Shown: positions 21,119-54,364, counted from the stretch's first letter. The stretch is DNA of 64,000 bases from an uncultured delta proteobacterium (GCA_963772655.1 CAVYYE010000003.1:2673341-2737340), one strand, 5' to 3'. Translations and numbers: made by a program. Notes: a model not told the origin generated them from the letters alone.

Positions 21119-21177
21119 GAAAGGTGGCGCGGCCCACGCCCGGGCGGATGGAGCCCGTTGATTGTGGGTACCTCTTA

Positions 21178-21300
21178 CGAGTGACCGGTGACGAGTGACG
21201 CGGCCTCTATGTCGAGGCCGTTACCTATTGCCGTTTGCAACAAACAAACCGTCTTGGGATGTGGTGGGCGGATAGGCACGTGACGAGTGACCAGCGACGT
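21178..21300. promoter_or_regulatory. two copies of a heptad-periodic element (GTGACcgGTGACgaGTGACgc at ~21181-21201 and GTGACgaGTGACcaGCGACgt at ~21280-21300) plus a 7-bp-stem hairpin (cggcctc-tatgtc-gaggccg, 21201-21220) in the 222-bp intergenic region
   Basis: These are direct observations. The region lies upstream of the lipoprotein gene start (21118, -) and downstream of peptide ORF 1. Confidence 0.3.
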
Positions 21301-21342: not shown

Positions 21343-21675
21343 CTACTTGAAGAACGGGTAGTAGACGCCGTCGATCGTGTAGCCGGAGTAACCGCCGATC
21401 GTGTTGGGGGCGTACGCGGGCGCGGGCGCGGGCGCGCTACCGCCGCCACCTCCACCCATCATCATCATGAACATCATCATGGTCGTCGGGTCCATGCCCT
21501 GCTGGCGGTTGGTCTGCAGGCTCTGGAGCGAGTCGATCACGCCGCTCAGCGCCTGCGTGATCTCGGCGTTGGAGCCGCTCGACGACACGCCACCGCTGAC
21601 CTGAGAGAGGTCGGTCGGGTCGATGGTCTGGAGGGTTTCGGGCCGGGCGGGTTGGGTGGGCTTGGCTTTGGGCAT
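21343..21675 (-). CDS. small secreted peptide precursor 1: double-glycine-type leader (…TLQTIDPTDLSQVSGG) + Met/Gly-rich core (MMMFMMMMGGGGGG)
   Basis: The ATG at 21675 has an AAGGA RBS 8 nt upstream. The protein is 110 aa. The leader is conserved with three other ORFs in the window. The gene lies immediately downstream of the VIT1-like transporter gene on the same strand. Confidence 0.6.
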   Translation of the reverse strand: MPKAKPTQPARPETLQTIDPTDLSQVSGGVSSSGSNAEITQALSGVIDSLQSLQTNRQQGMDPTTMMMFMMMMGGGGGGSAPAPAPAYAPNTIGGYSGYTIDGVYYPFFK

Positions 21676-21822
21676 GGCCGGTGTCCTTCGGTGGTGACAC
21701 CCCTGTCTCCAGCAGTCGACGTGCCACCGTTCGAAGGTCGCGATCTCGCGAACATCGACGACCATCGAGGGACGGGCCCCGGCGAGCGAAGCGCCGGTCC
21801 GTATACCGCCGGACTCGATCGA

Positions 21823-26678: not shown

Positions 26679-28313
<1,635 letters not shown>

Positions 28314-28412: not shown

Positions 28413-30815
28413 ATGACTACAGTCGGCACCACAGTCGGCCGCTACGAGCTTCTGCGCCTGCTCGCCGCCGGAGGGATGGGCGAGGTGTACCTCGCACGTC
28501 TCACCTCGGAGGTGGAGGGGTTCGGCGCGCTGGCCGCTGTCAAGGTGCTGCCACGCAACCTGAGCGCCAACGCGACCTTCGTGAAGATGTTTCTCGACGA
28601 AGCGCGAGCGGTCGGAAGACTCCACCACAAGAACATCGTGCAGGTCCGCGATGTCGCGGAGCACCTCGGCCAGTACTACATCGTGATGGAGTACATCTCC
28701 GGACAGAACCTGCGGGAGCTGCTCGGTGATGCATCGATCCGTGATCGGCCGCTGTTCGAACCGCGTCTCGGATGCGATGTGTTCATCGAGATCGCGAGTG
28801 CGCTCGCCGCGGCACACGCCGAGAAGCTGATCCACCGCGACGTCTCGCCCAACAACATCATGATCAGCGATGAGGGCATCGCGAAGTTGATCGACTTCGG
28901 CGTCGCACGCGCGCTCGGATCGACGTCCGGCACCAACCCCGGAACGCTCAAGGGCAAGTTCGGGTACATGGCGCCCGAGTACGTGCGCGAGCAAGCGTAC
29001 GACCACCGCGCGGACATCTTCTCGCTCGGTGTCGTGATGTGGGAGACGTTCGCACGCCGCCGATTGTTCCGCGGCACGGCGGCGGCCGAGCAGCTCCACC
29101 AGTTGCTCGAGGCCGACATCCCGCGGCTCGACGAGGTCCTGGACGACTTCCCGGCGGACCTCGCGACCATGGTCGCAGGCGCACTCGAGCGCGATCCCAC
29201 CCGCCGGATCTCGTCGGCGAACATGCTCGCGGAAGCGCTGACCGAGATCGCACGCGGATTGCCGGTGGGCCCCGATCTCACGCTGCGCAAGTGGCTCGAG
29301 CGCCGGATCCCCGGACGGCTCGAGGAGCGCCGGCGCGTCGACAACGCGCTGCTCGCACTTCCACGCGGTGCCGCGATCCCCGACTTCGGCGTCGCCTTCC
29401 CCGACGCGGGAAGCTTGCCCGGTACCTACGGCTTCGAACTGTCGCAACCGATCCGACTCGGCGAGTTGCTGGGAGAGCCGTCGTCGTCGTCGGGCGGTGC
29501 TCCTGCGATGGCGGCGCCGCTGCCGTCGGCACAGATGGCATCCCAGATGCCGACGATGCTCGGTGTCGGGATGACACCGAAGGACACCACACCGCCTCCG
29601 ATCTCCCAGCTCTCCCCAAAGCCGCAGGCCCAGAGCTCGCGCGGCAAATGGGTCGCGTTGATCGGAGGTCTCGCCGTCGCTGCCGTGGTCATCATCCTCG
29701 TGGCGCGCGGAGGCTCGTCGTCCCCGGATCTCGCCACCAAGGCATCCGGCTCGGACGTGCAGACCGCGGCTGCCGACGAGGCGCCGAAACCCGGCTCGGA
29801 TGCCTCGATCATCGAGGCCCACCGCCAGATCGGCCTCAAGGCGATGTCCGACGGCGACTACGCGAAGGCGCGCTCCGAGTTCCAGCAAGCGATCGAGGCG
29901 GGCGGCGGCGGCGATCTCGCTCAGCTCGCGAGCATGGCGGAGGAGCTCCAGAAGGACTCCACCGTCGCGCACGCCGCCGACGACAACGCCACCGACGACA
30001 AGACCACCGGCGACAAGGCCACCGACGACAAGGCCACCGACGACAAGGTCCCCACGAAGGTCGCGGCCGTCGAACCTCCCAAGGTCGCTGTTGCCAAGGC
30101 GCCGCCACGGCCGACTCCGACACCACGTAGAAGAGTGGTCGTCCCGCAGAAGCACCGCACCCGCGTTGCCGTGCGGCAACCGACGCGCCGCGAGGCCGAG
30201 CCGACGCCCGCCGCCGTCGAACCCGTCACGTTGCCTCCCACGCCCGAGCCACCGAAGAAGACCTACCTCGCGGTGACCTCGAGCAAGGTCGCGCCGGCCG
30301 GCACCGTGATGCGCGTCGACGGCAAGGTCGTCGGTCCGGTGCCCGGACTCACCAAGGTCAAGCCCGGCAACCACAAGCTCGTGATCGAGAACGGGTCGCG
30401 CATCCTGTACGCGAAGACCGTCGACGTCGGTGCCGGCGAGACCCAGCAGGTCAAGCTCGCGGATGCGGTGTTCGCGAAGCCGGCGGAGCCGGCCAAACCG
30501 CCACCCGCCGTCGTGCGCGCGCAGCGACCGCAACCGAAGCCGACACCGCGGGTGAGCTCCGACGGCAGTGTCGACGCCGGTCGCCGCGTGGTCGGTGCGT
30601 GCAGCGGTTGCCACCGCACGAGCGGGATCTCGGGGGTCGCACCGCGCAGCCGTTCGCGCGCGATGTGGGAACGTTTCTTCGCTTCCGGGCAGCACGATCG
30701 CTACATCCCGATCGGGGATCGGATGTCGGCCGGTCAGCTCCGGGCCGCGCGTGCCTACCTCCGCGCGAACGCCGCCGACTCTGCCGAAAACCAGGGCGCC
30801 GGCATCAAGAACTGA
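28413..30815 (+). CDS. eukaryotic-like Ser/Thr protein kinase (paralog of upstream kinase) with TM helix, periplasmic Pro-rich/DKATD-repeat linker, PEGA domain and C-terminal CXXCH motif
   Basis: The kinase motifs are GAGGMGEVYLA, HRDVSPNNIM and DFG. The TM segment is WVALIGGLAVAAVVIILVA. The PEGA domain reads YLAVTSSKVAPAGTVMRVDGKVVGPVPGLTKVKPGNHKLVIE. ACSGCHR lies near the C-terminus. A GGGAGG sequence sits upstream of the ATG at 28413. Confidence 0.9.
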   Translation: MTTVGTTVGRYELLRLLAAGGMGEVYLARLTSEVEGFGALAAVKVLPRNLSANATFVKMFLDEARAVGRLHHKNIVQVRDVAEHLGQYYIVMEYISGQNLRELLGDASIRDRPLFEPRLGCDVFIEIASALAAAHAEKLIHRDVSPNNIMISDEGIAKLIDFGVARALGSTSGTNPGTLKGKFGYMAPEYVREQAYDHRADIFSLGVVMWETFARRRLFRGTAAAEQLHQLLEADIPRLDEVLDDFPADLATMVAGALERDPTRRISSANMLAEALTEIARGLPVGPDLTLRKWLERRIPGRLEERRRVDNALLALPRGAAIPDFGVAFPDAGSLPGTYGFELSQPIRLGELLGEPSSSSGGAPAMAAPLPSAQMASQMPTMLGVGMTPKDTTPPPISQLSPKPQAQSSRGKWVALIGGLAVAAVVIILVARGGSSSPDLATKASGSDVQTAAADEAPKPGSDASIIEAHRQIGLKAMSDGDYAKARSEFQQAIEAGGGGDLAQLASMAEELQKDSTVAHAADDNATDDKTTGDKATDDKATDDKVPTKVAAVEPPKVAVAKAPPRPTPTPRRRVVVPQKHRTRVAVRQPTRREAEPTPAAVEPVTLPPTPEPPKKTYLAVTSSKVAPAGTVMRVDGKVVGPVPGLTKVKPGNHKLVIENGSRILYAKTVDVGAGETQQVKLADAVFAKPAEPAKPPPAVVRAQRPQPKPTPRVSSDGSVDAGRRVVGACSGCHRTSGISGVAPRSRSRAMWERFFASGQHDRYIPIGDRMSAGQLRAARAYLRANAADSAENQGAGIKN
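29985..30050 (+). repeat. in-frame 15-nt tandem repeat (ACCGACGACAAGGCC x ~4) encoding (T/A)DDK repeats
   Basis: The repeat is seen directly. Confidence 0.8.
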
Positions 30816-36197: not shown

Positions 36198-36878
36198 ATG
36201 CTGCATAGTAAATACATGCGAAACCTGCTCGTCCTGATGGTGCTCTCCATCGCCGCTGGCGGTTGTTACGCCACCACGACCACCGGCTACACCCCCGCCT
36301 ACGTCGGCCCGGCGGTGTCCGTCTCCGCCACGACCGTCGCCCCCGATCTCGTCTACGTCAGCCCTGGCGTTCAGGTGATCGCGGACTACGACGAACCGAT
36401 CTTCTACTCCGACGGCTTCTACTGGAGGGAGTACGGCGGCACCTGGTACCACTCGCGTTACTACGATCGCGGTTGGGCCTACGCCGCGCCGCCGCGTGCG
36501 ATCGTCTCGATCGGCAACCGGCGCTCGTACGTGCACTACCGCCCGCGCGGGTACACGCCCCGCGGCAGCTACGTGCGCGACCACCGCGGATACAACCGGT
36601 CGCGTCCGATCGTTCGCGACAACCGCGGCTACAACCGGTCGCGTCCGATCGTTCGCGACAATCGCGGCTACAACCGGTCGCGTCCGATCGTTCGCGACAA
36701 CCGCAACTACAACCGGTCGCGTCCCGTGGTTCGCGACAACCGTGGCTACAACCGATCGCGCCCGGTCGTTCGCGACAACCGCTCGACCCGGTCGCGTCCC
36801 GTGGTTCGCGACAACCGCAGCAACCGGTCGCGTCCCGTGCGCGACAACCGTAGCAACCGTCGCGATCATCGACGCTAG
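36198..36878 (+). CDS. lipoprotein with C-terminal tandem 13-aa repeats (RSRPIVRDNRGYN x ~7)
   Basis: The lipobox is MRNLLVLMVLSIAAGGC. The N-domain is Tyr/Trp-rich (YWREYGGTWYHSRYYDRGWAY). An alternative start lies at 36216. Confidence 0.6.
   Translation: MLHSKYMRNLLVLMVLSIAAGGCYATTTTGYTPAYVGPAVSVSATTVAPDLVYVSPGVQVIADYDEPIFYSDGFYWREYGGTWYHSRYYDRGWAYAAPPRAIVSIGNRRSYVHYRPRGYTPRGSYVRDHRGYNRSRPIVRDNRGYNRSRPIVRDNRGYNRSRPIVRDNRNYNRSRPVVRDNRGYNRSRPVVRDNRSTRSRPVVRDNRSNRSRPVRDNRSNRRDHRR
36575..36860 (+). repeat. 39-nt in-frame tandem repeat x ~7 (ggctacaaccggtcgcgtccgatcgttcgcgacaaccgc and variants)
   Basis: The repeat is seen directly. Confidence 0.85.
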
Positions 36879-39785: not shown

Positions 39786-40028
39786 CTACCACCAGCGACC
39801 GCGACGGCCGCTGACGTAGACGACGTTCGCCGCCTGGCTACGCTGGAGCGCGATGCCCATGAGAAGGATCATCTGCGTGCTCGAGAACCCCTTGGTCTGA
39901 GCCGAGATGTCCTTGATCGACGACGCCAGCTTGCTGATGTCGTCGAGGAACGGGTCACCTGCGTGCTTGGTTCCGCCGGTGACGGTCGAAAGAACGGTGG
40001 GATCGATGGACAGGATCTTGTTCGACAT
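39786..40028 (-). CDS. small secreted peptide precursor 2: double-glycine-type leader (MSNKILSIDPTVLSTVTGG) + amphipathic/hydrophobic cationic core ending RRGRWW (class II bacteriocin-like)
   Basis: The ATG has an AGGAAG RBS. The composition is Lys/Ile/Ser-rich and atypical for non-coding high-GC frames. The leader is conserved with ORFs at 21343, 42535 and 53721. Confidence 0.6.
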   Translation of the reverse strand: MSNKILSIDPTVLSTVTGGTKHAGDPFLDDISKLASSIKDISAQTKGFSSTQMILLMGIALQRSQAANVVYVSGRRGRWW

Positions 40029-40137
40029 GGGCTGGGCTTCCTGGTGATGGCAGGTGGTGCCGATCGTTCGAGCAGCCCGCGTGCCATCGCTAAGTCGTTG
40101 ATCCCAGTCGCGCGATCCAACCGAACGAATTCATTCG

Positions 40138-40189: not shown

Positions 40190-41074
40190 TCACTGGACCA
40201 GGAACGGCTGGTCGACGGTCGCCTTCACCGGCCGGCCGTCGTCGTCGAGGGCCGGCCGGTACCGGAACCGGAAGATCTGGTCCGCCGCCACGTTGTCGCG
40301 CGGACCACCGACGCCCTGTACGAGGTGGGCGCCGACCACGTAACCGTCGGTGTCGACGGTGACCCGTGCGACGAACAGCGGGTCACCGTCGCCGACCTCG
40401 CGCTGGCGCACCGGGTAGATCAGCTTCGGGGGGCGCGCCTTCGACGGTGGTGGTGGCGGCGGCAGGTGACTCGACAGTAGCTCGTCACCACCACCCGCCC
40501 CGTCCCCGAGCCCCGTCCCGCACGCCAGCCGCCCGATCCCGCGACACCGACCCGTGCCGTTGCCGGTGCCTCGCCCGTCACCCGTGCCCGCGCCGGTTCC
40601 CGTCGCACCCGCGCCGCCGCCGCGCTCGCCGGGACCTGACTCGATCTCGACCGTGCCGAGCTCCGAGGCGATGGTCCGGATCTCGGACGTATCGGTCCGG
40701 ATGCCGGAAGGCTTGGTCCGCGCACCGGACATCTCGGTCCGTGCACCAGACGTCTCGGTCCGAGTCTCGGTCCGAGTCTCGGACGATGCCGAAGTCGCCA
40801 ACGCGTCGGCGCCAATGTTGCCGTCGGCGCGGGGCGCGTCCCGCGCGGCGGGCTCGAGCGACGACGAAACGTCGACGACCTCGACGATCTCGACGCCCGG
40901 TGCCATCCCGAGGCCGTGTCCCGTCGACGGCGAGCGCCGCGCGAGCATCACCAGCGCCGCGCCGAGGATCGCGTGCAGTACCAGGGATCCGAGGAGCGCG
41001 CATCGTCGGAGATAGTCACGCGCCGGGCCCTCGGGGCGGGCGTGACGACGCTCCGGGTGTTGCCCCACATCCAC
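40190..41074 (-). CDS. TonB-family energy transducer (N-terminal TM anchor, Pro/Gly/Thr-rich periodic linker, C-terminal TonB domain)
   Basis: The anchor is ALLGSLVLHAILGAALVML. The linker has TETRTETSGARTEMSGARTKPSGIRTDTSEIRT repeats. The C-terminus reads PKLIYPVRQRE...GYVVGAHLVQGVGGP..D.AA...FRFRYRPA (TonB_C-like). Confidence 0.7.
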   Translation of the reverse strand: MDVGQHPERRHARPEGPARDYLRRCALLGSLVLHAILGAALVMLARRSPSTGHGLGMAPGVEIVEVVDVSSSLEPAARDAPRADGNIGADALATSASSETRTETRTETSGARTEMSGARTKPSGIRTDTSEIRTIASELGTVEIESGPGERGGGAGATGTGAGTGDGRGTGNGTGRCRGIGRLACGTGLGDGAGGGDELLSSHLPPPPPPSKARPPKLIYPVRQREVGDGDPLFVARVTVDTDGYVVGAHLVQGVGGPRDNVAADQIFRFRYRPALDDDGRPVKATVDQPFLVQ

Positions 41075-41788: not shown

Positions 41789-42403
41789 ATGCGTGCTCTA
41801 GCTTTGATTCCTCTCCTCACCGCGTGCGGCGCCGACCTCATGGAGCCACCGCCGGCGTCCGCGCGGGCCTATCTCGAGGCCGGTGCCGACGTCGAGGTGT
41901 CACCGGCCGACAGCGCCGGCACCATCGGCGCCGCTCACCACACCCCCGATGGCTGGGTGTCCGGCCTGACGGATCTGACGATCGACGCGGGAACGATCGC
42001 GCTCTCGACCACGAGCGATGGCGCGCTCGAGATCGACGACGTCTCGCTCGACCTCGGATCGATCGCGATCCCCGAGACCGTGCTCGGCTACGACGTCGCG
42101 CTCACCGACGTGCACGTCGGTCTGAAGGCCCCGGTCGCGATGGTTCCGGAGTGGGACGGCGACAACGCCGCGCACGCCCGGGCCGAGCTCGAGCTCGCGA
42201 TCACGTGGTCGCTGACCAACCACGGCACGACGTCGCCGCTCGGGTCACCGAAGCTGCCGTCGCTCCCGGTCGAGCTCGACATCACCGGGAGCGGAGCCGG
42301 CGTGAACGTCGAGATGCGGGTGACCGCACCGGGCACGTTGTGGACGTGGGCGAACCTGCTCGAGCTGCAGGATCTGACGCTGATCGTTGGCGGTCGCGGT
42401 TAG
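41789..42403 (+). CDS. lipoprotein, hypothetical
   Basis: The lipobox is MRALALIPLLTACG. The body is Asp/Thr/Leu-rich and about 204 aa. The start was chosen at an internal Met of the longer ORF. Confidence 0.5.
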   Translation: MRALALIPLLTACGADLMEPPPASARAYLEAGADVEVSPADSAGTIGAAHHTPDGWVSGLTDLTIDAGTIALSTTSDGALEIDDVSLDLGSIAIPETVLGYDVALTDVHVGLKAPVAMVPEWDGDNAAHARAELELAITWSLTNHGTTSPLGSPKLPSLPVELDITGSGAGVNVEMRVTAPGTLWTWANLLELQDLTLIVGGRG

Positions 42404-42525
42404 GCGATCGTCGCTCGTCGATCGTCGCTCGTCGCTCGTCGCTCGTCGCTCGTTGATCGTCGCTCGTCGCTCGTTGATCGTCGATCGTCGATCGTCGCTC
42501 GTCGCTCGTCGCCGATGGTCGCGTT
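42404..42525. repeat. intergenic heptanucleotide microsatellite (CGTCGCT / CGTTGAT / CGTCGAT) ~16 copies
   Basis: The repeat is seen directly. It lies immediately 3' of the peptide ORF 3 stop on the minus strand. Confidence 0.85.
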
Positions 42526-42534
42526 GACAGTCGT

Positions 42535-42729
42535 CTACTGGCCGTAGCCGGTCGTGCTGCCGTAGCCGGAGATCTGGACGTTGGTCGTGATCTCCGGACC
42601 GGCCGACGGCGGCGGAGCCGGCGGGGCCGCCGGCGGCGGGCAGCTCTTCTTCTTGTGACAACCGCCGGAGACGCCGGCGAGGTCGGAGAGATCGATCGAC
42701 TCGAGGAGGGGCTGGGTGGTGGTGGACAT
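42535..42729 (-). CDS. small secreted peptide precursor 3: double-glycine-type leader (MSTTTQPLLESIDLSDLAGVSGG) + Cys/Lys/Pro-rich core (CHKKKSCPPPAAPPAPPPSAG…GYGSTTGYGQ)
   Basis: The ATG at 42729 has a GAGAGG RBS. The protein is 64 aa. The leader is conserved with the other three peptide ORFs. Confidence 0.55.
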   Translation of the reverse strand: MSTTTQPLLESIDLSDLAGVSGGCHKKKSCPPPAAPPAPPPSAGPEITTNVQISGYGSTTGYGQ

Positions 42730-42885
42730 GTCGCCTCTCGGTGCAGCGCATATGCCACGGGTTCCCGCCGAAACTCCGCGCAGTTGGCCAGACGGCATCG
42801 TCTCCCGTGGGATGCAATCGATGATCGCGCGACGCAGGCCAACGCTGGTCGAGCGTGGGACAATCACCCGGTGATCGCGCCGAAC

Positions 42886-43113
42886 ATGTCATCGCGCGGC
42901 AAGCAGCTCGCAGCGCTGTTCGCCCTGGTGATCATCTTCGCGCTCCCCAAGCAGGTCGAGTGCGGGTATCCCGGCGGGACCTGCGAGCATCCGGCCTCGT
43001 TCCATCGCACGTGCAAGAGCTACGAGGTCGAGCCGTTCGGGTTCTACCTGATCGAGAAGCTGGTCGGAGACGACGTCGGGTTCGCGTACTCGTCGGGCGA
43101 GAACTGCCGCTAG
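42886..43113 (+). CDS. small secreted/membrane-anchored Cys-containing protein (75 aa, 4 Cys), divergent from peptide ORF 3
   Basis: The protein is MSSRGKQLAALFALVIIFALPKQVECGYPGGTCEHPASFHRTCKSY..., with a hydrophobic N-terminus and protein-like composition. Confidence 0.4.
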   Translation: MSSRGKQLAALFALVIIFALPKQVECGYPGGTCEHPASFHRTCKSYEVEPFGFYLIEKLVGDDVGFAYSSGENCR

Positions 43114-43541
43114 CTGGGGTAGTCGATCGCCACGACCTCGACTTCGCCGCGCGGCAACACGATGCTGTCGCCGACGCTGGCGTCGTAGAGCTCCTCGGCG
43201 ATCGGGGTCTGGAAGTAGATCGCGCCATCCTTGGGCGACGCCTCGATCGCGCCGACGATCCGGTAGGTGGTGCGCTTGCCACGCGCATCCTCGACCGTGA
43301 CCGCCGCTCCGAACCCGACGCGCGACCGATCGACCGGCGGCTCCATCACCACCGCGGTCCCCAGGTGATCGCCGAGCTCGCGGGCGCGATCCTCGTCGGT
43401 GCAACTCTCGAGCTCGGCGCGCAACGCACGGACACCGGCGGCCGTGACGTAGTTCGGCACGCCGTCGGGCACGGGCACGCCCCGGCGACGAACCGGCGGT
43501 GGGGGGACCCCGTCGTCGTCTTTCGTGAACGCCTTGCTCAA
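43110..43541 (-). CDS. GreA/GreB-family transcription elongation factor-like protein (C-terminal FKBP-like domain; Rnk-like)
   Basis: RTTYRIVGAIEASPKDGAIYFQTPIAEELYDASVGDSIVLPRGEVEVVAIDY matches the Gre C-terminal domain pattern. Confidence 0.75.
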   Translation of the reverse strand: MSKAFTKDDDGVPPPPVRRRGVPVPDGVPNYVTAAGVRALRAELESCTDEDRARELGDHLGTAVVMEPPVDRSRVGFGAAVTVEDARGKRTTYRIVGAIEASPKDGAIYFQTPIAEELYDASVGDSIVLPRGEVEVVAIDYPS

Positions 43542-43563
43542 GACCCCGTGTTATCACGCTCCG

Positions 43564-45276
43564 ATGAACGAGCGGGATGAGATGCGCGAGCCGGCCCCGA
43601 TCGACGAGATCGACCCGACCGATCCGCGTACCAGACTGCCGAACCAGATCCCGTTCATCATCGGGAACGAGGCGGCGGAACGCTTCAGCTACTACGGGAT
43701 GAGGAACATCCTCACGACGTTCCTCCCGATCTCGCTCTTGCTCGCGAACCTGCCACCCCCGGAACGCGAGGGCGCCGCCTCGACGGTGTTCCACACGTTC
43801 GCGATGGGCGTGTACTTCTTTCCGCTGCTCGGCGGCTGGCTGTCGGATCGCTGGTTCGGCAAGTACCACACGATCCTGTGGTTCAGCCTGATCTACTGCG
43901 TCGGGCAAGGCTGCCTCGCGCTGTTCGTCGACGACCGCACCGGGTTCTATACCGGTCTGTTCCTGATCGCGCTCGGATCGGGCGGCATCAAACCGCTGGT
44001 GTCGTCGTTCGTCGGCGACCAGTTCGACCAGTACAACAAGCACCGCGCCAAGGTCGTGTACGACGCGTTCTACTGGTCGATCAATTTCGGCTCGTTCTTC
44101 GCGTCGCTGTTGATGCCGATCTTCTTGCGCCAGCTCGGTCCACGCGTCGCGTTCGGCGTGCCCGGCGTGCTGATGGCGGTCGCGACGCTGGTGTTCTGGC
44201 TGGGTCGCAAGCGCTACAAGAACATGCCGCCGGCGCCGCGCAACCCGGACTCGTTCGTCAACGTGTCGCGCACCGCGCTGCGCGCCGGCGGGTTCGGCTT
44301 CGCGCTGTTCGTGATCGGCGCCTTGATCATGTTCGGGCTGCTCGTCGCCTCGGGCACGTACTTCATCCATCCGGTGTGGCCGATGACGTGGCTCAAGCCG
44401 GCGGAGTCGATCTGCCTCGGCGTGATGGTGTTCTTGGTGTGCGGCTCGATCGGAGTCCACCACCAGCTCGAGCTCGCGCGCGGCAAGCACCCGGACGAGG
44501 CGATCGACGGCGTGCGCGCCGTGCTGCGCGTGCTGATCGTGTTCGCACTGGTGACGCCATTCTGGACGTTGTTCGACCAGAAGGCCTCGACCTGGGTGTT
44601 CCAGGGCATGGAGATGTCGAAGCCGTCGTGGTTCGAGTCGGCGCAGATGCAGCTGGTCAACCCGGCGCTCGTGATGATCCTGATCCCGCTCAACAACCTC
44701 GTGTTGTTCCCGGCGATGCGCAGGCGGGGCTTCAAGCTCACCCAGCTCGGAAAGATGACCACCGGGATGGCGCTCGCCGGGTGTTCCTACATCTCGGTCG
44801 CGATCTTCCAGCTGGTCCTCGACGGTGGCGGTGACCTGTCGATCGTGTGGCAGGTGATCCCGTACGCGCTGCTCACCATGGGCGAGGTGCTGGTGTCGGC
44901 GACCGGCCTCGAGTTCGCGTACAGCCAGGCGCCGCTGTCGATGAAGGGCGTGATCATGAGCTTCTGGCAGCTCGCGGTCACGATGGGCAACCTGTGGACG
45001 CTGCTCGCGCGGGAGACCGTGCACCGCAAGGGTGTGGCCGACTGGATCTCGGGTTTCGGGATCACGCCGACCGCGTTCCTCATGGTGTTCTTCGCGGGCT
45101 TCGCGTTCTGCGCCGCGCTCGCGTTCCGCTGGTACGCCAAGCGCTACAAGGAGGTCGACAACTACCGCAGCAGCGGACCCGCTCCGGGTGCCGGTCCGGC
45201 GCCGATCCCGAAGGCGACCGCGCACGATGTCGACGAGCTGCCGAAGGCGACGGCGCGCGAGACCGACGAGGATTGA
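43564..45276 (+). CDS. POT/PTR2-family proton-dependent oligopeptide transporter (MFS)
   Basis: The PTR2 signatures are FSYYGMRNIL, GGWLSDRWFGKY and FLIALGSGGIKP. There are 12-14 TM helices. Confidence 0.9.
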   Translation: MNERDEMREPAPIDEIDPTDPRTRLPNQIPFIIGNEAAERFSYYGMRNILTTFLPISLLLANLPPPEREGAASTVFHTFAMGVYFFPLLGGWLSDRWFGKYHTILWFSLIYCVGQGCLALFVDDRTGFYTGLFLIALGSGGIKPLVSSFVGDQFDQYNKHRAKVVYDAFYWSINFGSFFASLLMPIFLRQLGPRVAFGVPGVLMAVATLVFWLGRKRYKNMPPAPRNPDSFVNVSRTALRAGGFGFALFVIGALIMFGLLVASGTYFIHPVWPMTWLKPAESICLGVMVFLVCGSIGVHHQLELARGKHPDEAIDGVRAVLRVLIVFALVTPFWTLFDQKASTWVFQGMEMSKPSWFESAQMQLVNPALVMILIPLNNLVLFPAMRRRGFKLTQLGKMTTGMALAGCSYISVAIFQLVLDGGGDLSIVWQVIPYALLTMGEVLVSATGLEFAYSQAPLSMKGVIMSFWQLAVTMGNLWTLLARETVHRKGVADWISGFGITPTAFLMVFFAGFAFCAALAFRWYAKRYKEVDNYRSSGPAPGAGPAPIPKATAHDVDELPKATARETDED

Positions 45277-53720: not shown

Positions 53721-53948
53721 TCACTTGTTGGCGACCAGCGGCACCAACGGCGATCCCGGGAACGTCGGCAACGGGTTCGGGAACGTCGGCGACGGGTTCG
53801 GGAACGTCGGCGACGGGGTCGGGAACGGGTTGAACGGTCCGGTGCATCCGCCACCGTTCGGCTGCTTCGTCACTCCGCCGGTGACCAGCGAGAGCTCGTC
53901 GAGCTCGACGACGTTATCGGTGGCGGTGACGTTCTCGGTATCGCGCAT
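53721..53948 (-). CDS. small secreted peptide precursor 4: double-glycine-type leader (…NVVELDELSLVTGG) + Pro-rich core with (PTFPNPS)3 repeat
   Basis: The ATG at 53948 has an AGGAGAG RBS 6 nt upstream. The protein is 75 aa. The leader is conserved with the other peptide ORFs. Confidence 0.55.
   Translation of the reverse strand: MRDTENVTATDNVVELDELSLVTGGVTKQPNGGGCTGPFNPFPTPSPTFPNPSPTFPNPLPTFPGSPLVPLVANK
53752..53822 (-). repeat. 21-nt in-frame tandem repeat x3 (gggaacgtcggcgacgggttc) encoding PTFPNP(S/L)
   Basis: The repeat is seen directly. Confidence 0.8.
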
Positions 53949-54364
53949 GATGTCTCTCCTGTTTGGATTCGCGGCCGGTTCGGCTGCAACCTCCTCGAGA
54001 GCACTCGACGTGCCAGCGTCGCTCGCACGCTCGCGATCAAAAGTGTTCGCGAGTTGCGGATCGACCACGCGCTTCGCGACCTCGCGGTGCGTGTCCCGCG
54101 GTCGGCGATCGGCATCCCGTGGTTGGCGTCGTGATCGTCGAGGAGCCGGCGGCGCGCTTGATGATCGAGACGGCGATCGACATGACGCTGACGATAGGAG
54201 CAGCTCGCGTGCCACGCGATCGCGGCCGCATGCACGCGACTTGTGCGCCGTCGCGAGCGTTCCGCGGGTAACACCGTGCCGTCTCTGAGCATCAGTCACT
54301 GGTCGAACCGCCTCGGCGTTTCATGGTTGCGCGAATTGTGCAGCGCGGGCACGATGCCGCCGTG

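Follow-up and report, generated by a model that had tools for sequence, protein, structure and literature searches.

A strain-variable heptanucleotide repeat in the convergent spacer beside a double-glycine-type peptide gene of an uncultured Kofleriaceae-type myxobacterium

A long heptanucleotide repeat lies at the 3' end of a gene encoding a small peptide with a double-glycine-type leader (peptide 3) in a 64-kb stretch of DNA from an uncultured bacterium, and this raises the question of whether the repeat acts on the peptide gene or is one more variable tandem repeat of a kind already known. A first-pass annotation of the same DNA had favored the former, proposing a phase-variation-like switch and, for a small divergently encoded protein, a role as immunity or partner protein of the peptide. 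The whole stretch that was analyzed (64,000 nt; G+C approximately 68%) is referred to as the window, and all positions are those of the window.

Position and composition of the array

Five genes around the array were supported by third-position G+C (GC3) and homology. The features of the region are as follows.

41789-42403, + strand: lipoprotein-like gene, 204 aa, with the signal MRALALIPLLTACG; GC3 0.88; the TAG stop lies directly before the array
42404-42513, no strand: heptanucleotide microsatellite, non-coding, about 16 units of GTCGCTC, GTCGATC, and GTTGATC
42514-42534, no strand: unique spacer GATGGTCGCGTTGACAGTCGT of 21 nt between the array and the peptide 3 stop, read from the sequence
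42535-42729, - strand: peptide 3, 64 aa, with a double-glycine-type leader, from an ORF and motif scan; GC3 0.92
42742-42757, - strand: promoter-like element of the sigma-54 (-24/-12) type, TGGCATATGCGCTGCA, which stops 12 nt short of the peptide 3 ATG
42799-42817, no strand: conserved near-palindromic element in the middle of the intergenic region, CGTCTCCCGTGGGATGCAA on the + strand and TTGCATCCCACGGGAGACG on the - strand
42886-43113, + strand: small protein, 75 aa, with four Cys and a hydrophobic N-terminus; GC3 0.92
43110-43541, - strand: protein with a GreA/GreB C-terminal domain, 143 aa (Pfam PF01272, E=1.1e-14)
43525-45276, + strand: POT-family transporter

The array was located by Tandem Repeats Finder (TRF) at 42408-42512 (period 7, 15.0 copies, 89% matches, score 161). 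When the units are read in register, the array spans 110 nt, starting 1 nt past the TAG stop of the + strand lipoprotein-like gene (42401-42403) and running to the unique flank GATGG. The 16 units follow the order GCGATC, A B A A A A C A A C B B A A, GTCGCC, where A is GTCGCTC, B is GTCGATC, and C is GTTGATC. The pattern GTYGMTC x3 gave 13 overlapping matches in the window, all of them within the array, versus 0.01 expected from shuffled sequences; head-to-tail short units far above chance, as in bacterial SSR/VNTR loci, are thus present. The heptamer microsatellite reported at the 3' end of peptide 3 in the first-pass annotation is real, but it measures 105-110 bp rather than approximately 120 bp, and the clean array lies 21 nt, not 9 bp, from the peptide stop codon (42535-42537). 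To arrive at the shorter distance, one or two degenerate units (GATGGTC...) must be assigned to the array, and the CGTCGCT unit named at that time is a rotation of the array unit.

The gap between the stop codons of the two convergent genes (42403 / 42535) is 131 nt in the window. Because the array abuts the stop of the convergent lipoprotein-like gene, it forms the 3' flank of two genes. This convergent gene, whose stop adjoins the array, had been missing from the earlier description of the locus.

The array is non-coding. The exact 204-aa product of the lipoprotein-like gene, on record as P0246, had 273 representative homologues at E<=1e-3, and the alignments extended up to residue 200-203 of 204, which indicates that the gene does not reach into the repeat; no Pfam or NCBIfam family was matched by this protein. 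ORFs running through the array had GC3 values of 0.52-0.66, versus 0.88-0.92 for genuine genes nearby. A coding repeat was ruled out by this low GC3 of the crossing frames together with the flanking proteins, which end where their homologues end.

Copy-number variation and origin of the array

A second allele was found in L002, a 1092-bp JGI metagenome contig (sample 3300037398) that runs from the last part of the lipoprotein gene through the gap and the complete peptide gene into the beginning of the gene for the 75-aa protein. The 21-nt spacer GATGGTCGCGTTGACAGTCGT was identical in L001 and L002. The L002 flanks are 99.1-99.4% identical to the window (99.2% overall), with 8 SNPs in 1147 bp, and these substitutions indicate that the contig comes from another strain. 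The array of L002 measures 47 nt against 110 nt in the window, a difference of 63 nt, or exactly nine units, so that the copy number is approximately 7 in the former and approximately 16 in the latter, in one comparison of two assemblies. The unit order of L002 (GCGCTC, B B A A A, GTCGCC) is not derivable by collapsing the window allele, and from k=23 upward the contig contains k-mers that are absent from the window allele, which shows that it is not a collapsed copy of the window sequence. The two alleles are separated by at least two events. The array had been suspected of being hypermutable and length-polymorphic, and the copy-number comparison suggested as a check agrees with this: a whole-unit difference with conserved flanks, as in VNTR loci, was found, although in one comparison and with both alleles taken from assemblies.

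Mis-assembly is common at tandem repeats, and assemblers usually stop there. Consistent with this, the Logan short-read assembly ERR11594398 matches 6 kb of the window with 100% identity and then stops once it has entered the array by 7-8 nt; the array explains such short-read assembly breaks at this site. Together with the modest size of L002 (a mere 1.1-kb metagenome contig), the break could be taken to mean that the array, or its length difference between the alleles, is an artefact of assembly. We give this explanation almost no credence. Heptamer units occur at this exact site in three independent assemblies, and the 47-nt array of L002 is probably below the length of a typical short read. 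The foreign k-mers and flank SNPs of L002 likewise argue against an artefact, as do the interspersed unit variants, which are clean, in register, and untypical of sequencing noise.

No further allele spanning the array was obtained from the metagenome scans or from the exact-protein look-ups of the lipoprotein (204-aa and 237-aa starts). An exact 25-nt flank gave 0 matches in the metagenome contigs searched, and the metagenome contigs scanned with the peptide gave no match, perhaps because the 600 candidates were swamped by the PPPAAPPA pattern. The genome contigs scanned with the lipoprotein yielded no relative, since the peptide patterns gave no match there, and the short ENA contigs carrying the Cys protein stop short of the array.

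The stop-to-stop spacers of the related loci and the window form a graded series in length (alignment A2), as follows.

L072: 1 nt; gene order identical (lipoprotein, peptide, Cys protein, GreA-like); approximately 70-76% DNA identity
L071: 15 nt, CAGGTCATTCGCTCG, with one TCGCTCG unit; 81% DNA identity
L002: 68 nt; 99.2% identical strain
Window: 131 nt

None of the peptide-gene 3' flanks that were read (L016, L017, L018, L037, L042, L071, and L072) contains an array. In L016, L017, and L018, the 1-66 nt past the peptide stop are free of repeats, whereas the gap of L042 holds a clear bidirectional intrinsic terminator and that of L037 an unrelated sequence. A gene for a DPBB-like lipoprotein occurs in the same neighborhood of 17 relatives, usually between the two convergent genes, and is absent from the whole window. 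The possibility that the repeat is simply conserved as it stands in relatives, named earlier as a reason to doubt the switch, was not borne out, and the array was missing from every orthologous spacer examined. It is also unique within the DNA examined. When TRF was run over 383 kb of related loci, nine short non-triplet arrays were obtained, none of comparable copy number. Tandem dimers of GTCGCTC, GTCGATC, or GTTGATC were found nowhere outside the array in the 64-kb window or the 53 related loci; within this DNA, membership of a dispersed repeat family was therefore ruled out. An origin at an inversion junction was also rejected, since the convergent lipoprotein-to-peptide order is widespread and hence ancestral, with no breakpoint.

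We consider it probable that the array is a lineage-specific, strain-variable VNTR that was made by slippage from one proto-unit in the convergent spacer and is probably neutral. The starting point would have been a single TCGCTCG proto-unit in a short gap between the lipoprotein-like gene (+) and peptide 3 (-), from which replication slippage or unequal exchange would have produced a young array confined to this lineage. A change in copy number, such as that from approximately 16 to approximately 7 units, would alter only the length of an untranslated tail. Situated beyond both stop codons, the array most likely has no selected function; its position and the absence of conservation are the grounds on which neutrality is argued, and slippage is the origin that we infer. 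Its approximately 16 units make the array long for a functionless bacterial SSR, which counts against the neutral reading.

The array is an ordinary, textbook-type bacterial heptanucleotide VNTR, and its kind is already known. In PMC4692102 and PMC4679880, both of which cite a 2007 survey, heptanucleotide SSRs are given as the most abundant class of long SSR in many bacterial genomes, and the same two papers attribute heptanucleotide repeats to polymerase slippage, with lengths that vary between close relatives and with intergenic positions near the end of the upstream ORF. In Burkholderia, Xanthomonas, and Ralstonia, VNTR loci are used for MLVA typing (PMC4692102, PMC4679880, PMC1853098). The array shares with such long SSR/VNTR loci the head-to-tail 7-nt units, the intergenic position close to a gene 3' end, the whole-unit copy-number differences between close strains, and slippage as the accepted origin. 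It differs in belonging to an uncultured Kofleriaceae-type myxobacterium, in occurring only once in the DNA examined, and in being long (approximately 16 units) with three interspersed unit variants.

Similarly, the dispersed heptamers of Xanthomonas (GGGAATC) and Nostoc (GGGGA(C/T)T) (PMC4692102) are 7-nt, intergenic repeats, often placed just after an upstream ORF, and vary in length between relatives. The TAACTGA repeat of Beggiatoaceae and cyanobacteria is another dispersed heptamer family (PMC4679880), and three tandem heptanucleotides are mentioned for Calothrix PCC7601 (PMC4692102). In such families, however, one fixed motif recurs at tens to hundreds of loci in a genome and is G4-forming or close to start codons, whereas the array has no second locus in the 64-kb window and 383 kb of related DNA and contains no G-runs. 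The array alone brings no new biology, but it could be used as a strain marker for the uncultured Kofleriaceae population.

Tests for an effect of the array on gene expression

The first-pass annotation had proposed that the array could modulate transcript stability or termination in the manner of a phase-variation switch; slippage would then change the length of the peptide 3 3' UTR and give heritable and reversible expression states. The copy-number difference between near-identical strains would suit such a switch, and the peptide transcript probably includes the array, since the 131-bp gap has no other predicted terminator. However, no intrinsic terminator (a G+C-rich hairpin followed by a U-tract) was predicted in 42404-42534 on either strand, the RNA fold of the array was no better than that of shuffled sequences on either strand (z +0.54 and -0.78), and no Rfam family matched the array at E<=1. 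A terminator or structured RNA was ruled out on these three results.

The position of the array also argues against a switch. In the known SSR switches, a change in length alters the reading frame, promoter spacing, or the 5' UTR (PMC12721329; examples in PMC4679880). The array lies between two stop codons and so has no effect on any of these, which sets it apart from phase-variation contingency loci. It resembles the contingency loci of Haemophilus, Neisseria, and Moraxella (PMC12721329; uspA2, PMC4679880) in being a hypermutable SSR beside the gene for a secreted or surface product, but the SSRs of such loci lie in ORFs, promoters, or 5' UTRs, where a change in length affects the reading frame, promoter spacing, or 5'-UTR processing, and the array is past two stop codons. 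In addition, the other peptide-family loci that were read carry no array, one of them with identical gene order and a 1-nt spacer, which indicates that the peptide family does not need it. With neither a terminator, fold, nor Rfam match in the array, and without conservation, the proposal of a switch of transcript stability or termination did not hold up, and a switch appears improbable. Were the array to tune peptide expression, it would represent a new position for an SSR switch; the evidence is against this.

Alternatively, the array might be a selected spacer or insulator, serving as a Rho-utilization tract or as a buffer against collision and antisense read-through in place of the terminator or gene of the relatives. 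The DPBB-like lipoprotein gene at 17 loci and the bidirectional terminator in L042 occupy this place, and the window has neither such a gene nor such a terminator. This reading also seems quite improbable: spacers of 1 and 15 nt suffice in L072 and L071, and the length of the array is not constant, as the 7-unit allele shows. The C/G ratio of the array was 1.25 on the + strand (approximately the 80th percentile, a value reached by 20% of windows) and 0.8 on the peptide strand, so the array is not rut-like, and a rut-like C-rich tract was ruled out.

As the gap contains no recognizable terminator, unlike that of L042, both transcripts may cross the array, the length of which might then influence convergent transcription or the processing of 3' ends, a point against the neutral reading. 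More specifically, the array length might set the overlap of the convergent transcripts and lead to reversible, heritable variation in the output of the secreted peptide, a speculation to which we attach very little weight. We know of no description of an SSR phase variation of this 3'-end (antisense or collision) type.

Peptide 3, its divergent neighbor, and their shared intergenic region

The leader of peptide 3 (LLESIDLSDLAGVSGG, followed by C) ends in VSGG and carries hydrophobic residues at V(-4), L(-7), I(-12), and L(-15), as is characteristic of leaders that end in GG, and the core comprises CHKKKSC, a Pro/Ala-rich stretch, and GPEITTNVQISGYG. Homologues were found as P0093-P0095 and at about 22 genome loci, and an alignment of 16 homologues shows the leader to be conserved. 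The cores of the family start with C-x-K-K-x-C(C), continue with a Pro/Ala-rich middle, and end in the tail (T/P)E(I/V)(T/S)T(N/S)V(Q/S)xxG(Y/F), with EITTNVQxxGYG conserved. Peptide 3 had no Pfam or NCBIfam match at E<=0.1 and thus fits none of the curated models for leaders or bacteriocins; a literature search on double-glycine peptides in myxobacteria found nothing specific. The family is an uncharacterized family of GG-leader peptides.

Peptide 3 shares with class II bacteriocin-like GG-leader peptides the GG motif and the hydrophobic residues at -4, -7, -12, and -15, and also an adjacent gene for a small protein with a hydrophobic N-terminus. Unlike those systems, it matches no curated model, its neighbor is divergent, and its promoter is of the sigma-54 type. 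In addition, no C39-peptidase ABC exporter or modifying enzyme was found among the 30 window ORFs scanned, which cover part of the window.

The divergently encoded protein, described in the first-pass annotation as a 75-aa, 4-Cys protein with a hydrophobic N-terminus, was confirmed as such in the sequence, with Cys at positions 26, 33, 43, and 74, all of which are invariant. It contains the motifs LPKxVECGYPGG and GFAYSSGExCR, and the alignment of the family (A1) revealed P21, C26, P29, C33, C43, E49, P50, E57, G65-Y68, and C74 as invariant residues. Whether the small ORF is a gene had been left as a point to check; its 91 full-length homologues (48-77% identity), the four invariant Cys, and the GC3 of 0.92 identify it as a real protein-coding gene on sequence grounds. 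The AF2 model built from the family alignment was of moderate confidence (pLDDT 70) and showed a helix at 3-19 followed by a small beta/alpha domain. No significant match was found in PDB, either by Foldseek (best E=0.55) or by a profile search of the PDB sequences, and there was no match in Pfam, NCBIfam, or PADLOC. The protein is probably membrane-anchored or exported and disulfide-bonded.

The protein occurs in 53 genomes titled Kofleriaceae, Haliangiales, or Myxococcales bacterium MAG, a few of them titled only Deltaproteobacteria or Proteobacteria and one Acidobacteriota. The family is restricted to Haliangiales/Kofleriaceae, and the host of the window belongs to the Kofleriaceae/Haliangiales group of Myxococcota. 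On its other side, the Cys-protein gene is convergent with the GreA-like gene, the stop codons of the two overlapping in CTAG, and the same convergent pairing was seen in L006, L007, and L072.

In 22 of the 53 species-level genomes, the Cys-protein gene has a divergently oriented peptide-3-family gene upstream of it; the two genes are directly adjacent in 11 of these pairs, and in the other 11 a gene for an 85-97-aa lipoprotein precedes the Cys gene. From the peptide side, a small Cys operon was found beside every locus (about 25 loci), including all three of the peptide homologues that were retrieved independently of the Cys protein. The pair also remains intact in L016 and L018, where it is inverted relative to the GreA-like and lipoprotein genes. 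The recurrent divergent pairing, the three independently retrieved homologues, the pair kept intact on inversion, and the conserved palindrome in the middle of the shared region would suit the earlier proposal of an immunity or partner protein, in the form of a protein dedicated to peptide 3 and regulated jointly with it from the region between the two genes. However, the Cys protein is present without the peptide in 31 of the 53 genomes, in other contexts as well, such as the unrelated one of L008. The lipoprotein, GreA-like, and POT transporter genes make the neighborhood syntenic as a whole, so the adjacency of the peptide and Cys genes may be simply inherited. The absence of the peptide from the 31 genomes and this synteny weaken the immunity reading. 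Moreover, the Cys gene is divergent from the peptide gene, with no co-transcription, and its product matches no known immunity family, fold, or defense model. A dedicated immunity or partner role therefore seems rather unlikely, and the link between the two proteins is drawn from conserved neighborhood only. The peptide family, with its putative sigma-54-type promoter and its uncharacterized 4-Cys neighbor across Haliangiales, appears more promising than the array.

The length of 156 bp that the first-pass annotation gave for the shared intergenic region was confirmed, with the peptide ATG at 42729 and that of the small protein at 42886. The pattern TGGCAY-N5-YTGCW gave 4 matches in the 64-kb window, versus 0.11 expected, one upstream of each of the 4 GG-leader peptide ORFs; that of peptide 4 lies approximately 250 nt upstream. 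In most of about 20 related loci, the element is conserved 12-16 nt before the ATG, and in three others 3-15 nt before it. Peptide 3 thus has conserved -24 GG and -12 GC elements at a fixed distance from each other (TGGCAC-N5-TTGCW) and is predicted to be driven by a putative sigma-54-type promoter. Approximately 45 nt upstream of the element lies the near-palindrome TTGCATCCCGYGGGAGACG, a candidate activator site, whose placement relative to the -24 element recurs in the window, in L016 and L017, and at about 15 genome loci. The short distance between the sigma-54-type element and the ATG suggests that the peptide 3 mRNA has a very short or absent 5' leader. Among the genes of the peptide-3 family, the sigma-54-type promoter is conserved and almost touches the start codon.

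Sigma-54-type elements and a conserved near-palindrome

The sigma-54-type pattern TGGCAY-N5-YTGCW was matched exactly four times in the 64-kb window, against 0.11 matches expected. All four matches were found on the minus strand, one upstream of each of the four GG-leader (double-glycine) peptide ORFs:

21711-21726, minus strand: element of peptide 1 (ORF 21343-21675; 35 nt to the ATG)
40071-40086, minus strand: element of peptide 2 (ORF 39786-40028; 42 nt to the ATG)
42742-42757, minus strand: element of peptide 3 (ORF 42535-42729; 12 nt to the ATG)
54199-54214, minus strand: element of peptide 4 (ORF 53721-53948; about 250 nt to the ATG)

Comparison of window positions 42730-42757 with the homologous loci revealed that the -12 element is separated from the ATG of the peptide-3 family by only 12-16 nt in most related loci examined. 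Such a short distance implies that the sigma-54 transcript of this family may be leaderless or nearly so.

The near-palindrome TTGCATCCCGYGGGAGACG (42799-42817), which precedes the -24 element of peptide 3 by about 45 nt, is conserved and occupies the equivalent relative position in the related loci L016 and L017 and in about 15 genome loci. It lies in the region common to the peptide gene and the gene of the four-Cys protein (or of the small lipoprotein), and may be bound by an enhancer-binding protein.

Convergent gene ends and lipoprotein genes of relatives

The stop codons of the 75-aa Cys-protein gene (plus strand) and the GreA-like gene (minus strand) overlap in the palindrome CTAG at 43110-43113. 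The same tail-to-tail overlap was detected in L006 and L007, and in L072 the two convergent genes are 3 nt apart. In the window, the gap between the lipoprotein-like gene and peptide 3 consists of the heptamer microsatellite and 21 nt, with nothing else. The equivalent convergent spacer of L042 (2592-2686) contains a textbook example of a bidirectional intrinsic terminator, AAAAAGGGGGTCGGGGTGCC...GGCACCGAGCCCCTTTTCGTTTT, and after it (TGACGC)x3.

Many relatives carry a gene for a DPBB-like lipoprotein of about 230 aa between the lipoprotein and peptide genes; no homologue was found anywhere in the 64-kb window. Also absent from the window is a small conserved lipoprotein of 85-97 aa (signal ...LAGLSGC, C-terminal GCxxGACS). 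About half of the loci that bear the peptide carry the gene of this lipoprotein, which lies 5' of the Cys-protein gene and overlaps the start of the latter:

L020 104-805, minus strand: DPBB-like lipoprotein gene (further copies in L018, L019, L034 and 13 other loci)
L004 5747-6004: small lipoprotein gene
L017 35-313: small lipoprotein gene
contig of the peptide-3 homologue P0095: small lipoprotein gene (97 aa)

Other tandem repeats

Besides the peptide-3 array, the only period-7 tandem repeat in the window is a short one, ACGAGTG x3.4 (21177-21200), which lies about 140 nt downstream of peptide 1 on the strand opposite to that array and is probably coincidental. With period lengths divisible by three, other strong tandem repeats are located inside ORFs with coding-type GC3, among them that of the TonB-C-like protein (40190-41074):

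36572-36850: 39 nt x7.4
27647-27746: 9 nt x11
29973-30057: 15 nt x5
40672-40782: 21/12 nt

Within peptide 4, a 21-nt repeat (53757-53827; 3.4 copies, 96% matches) codes for PTFPNPS-type repeats. The Kofleriaceae MAG locus L068 (5793-5957) contains a tandem repeat with a 38-nt unit, present in 4.3 copies that are 98% identical.
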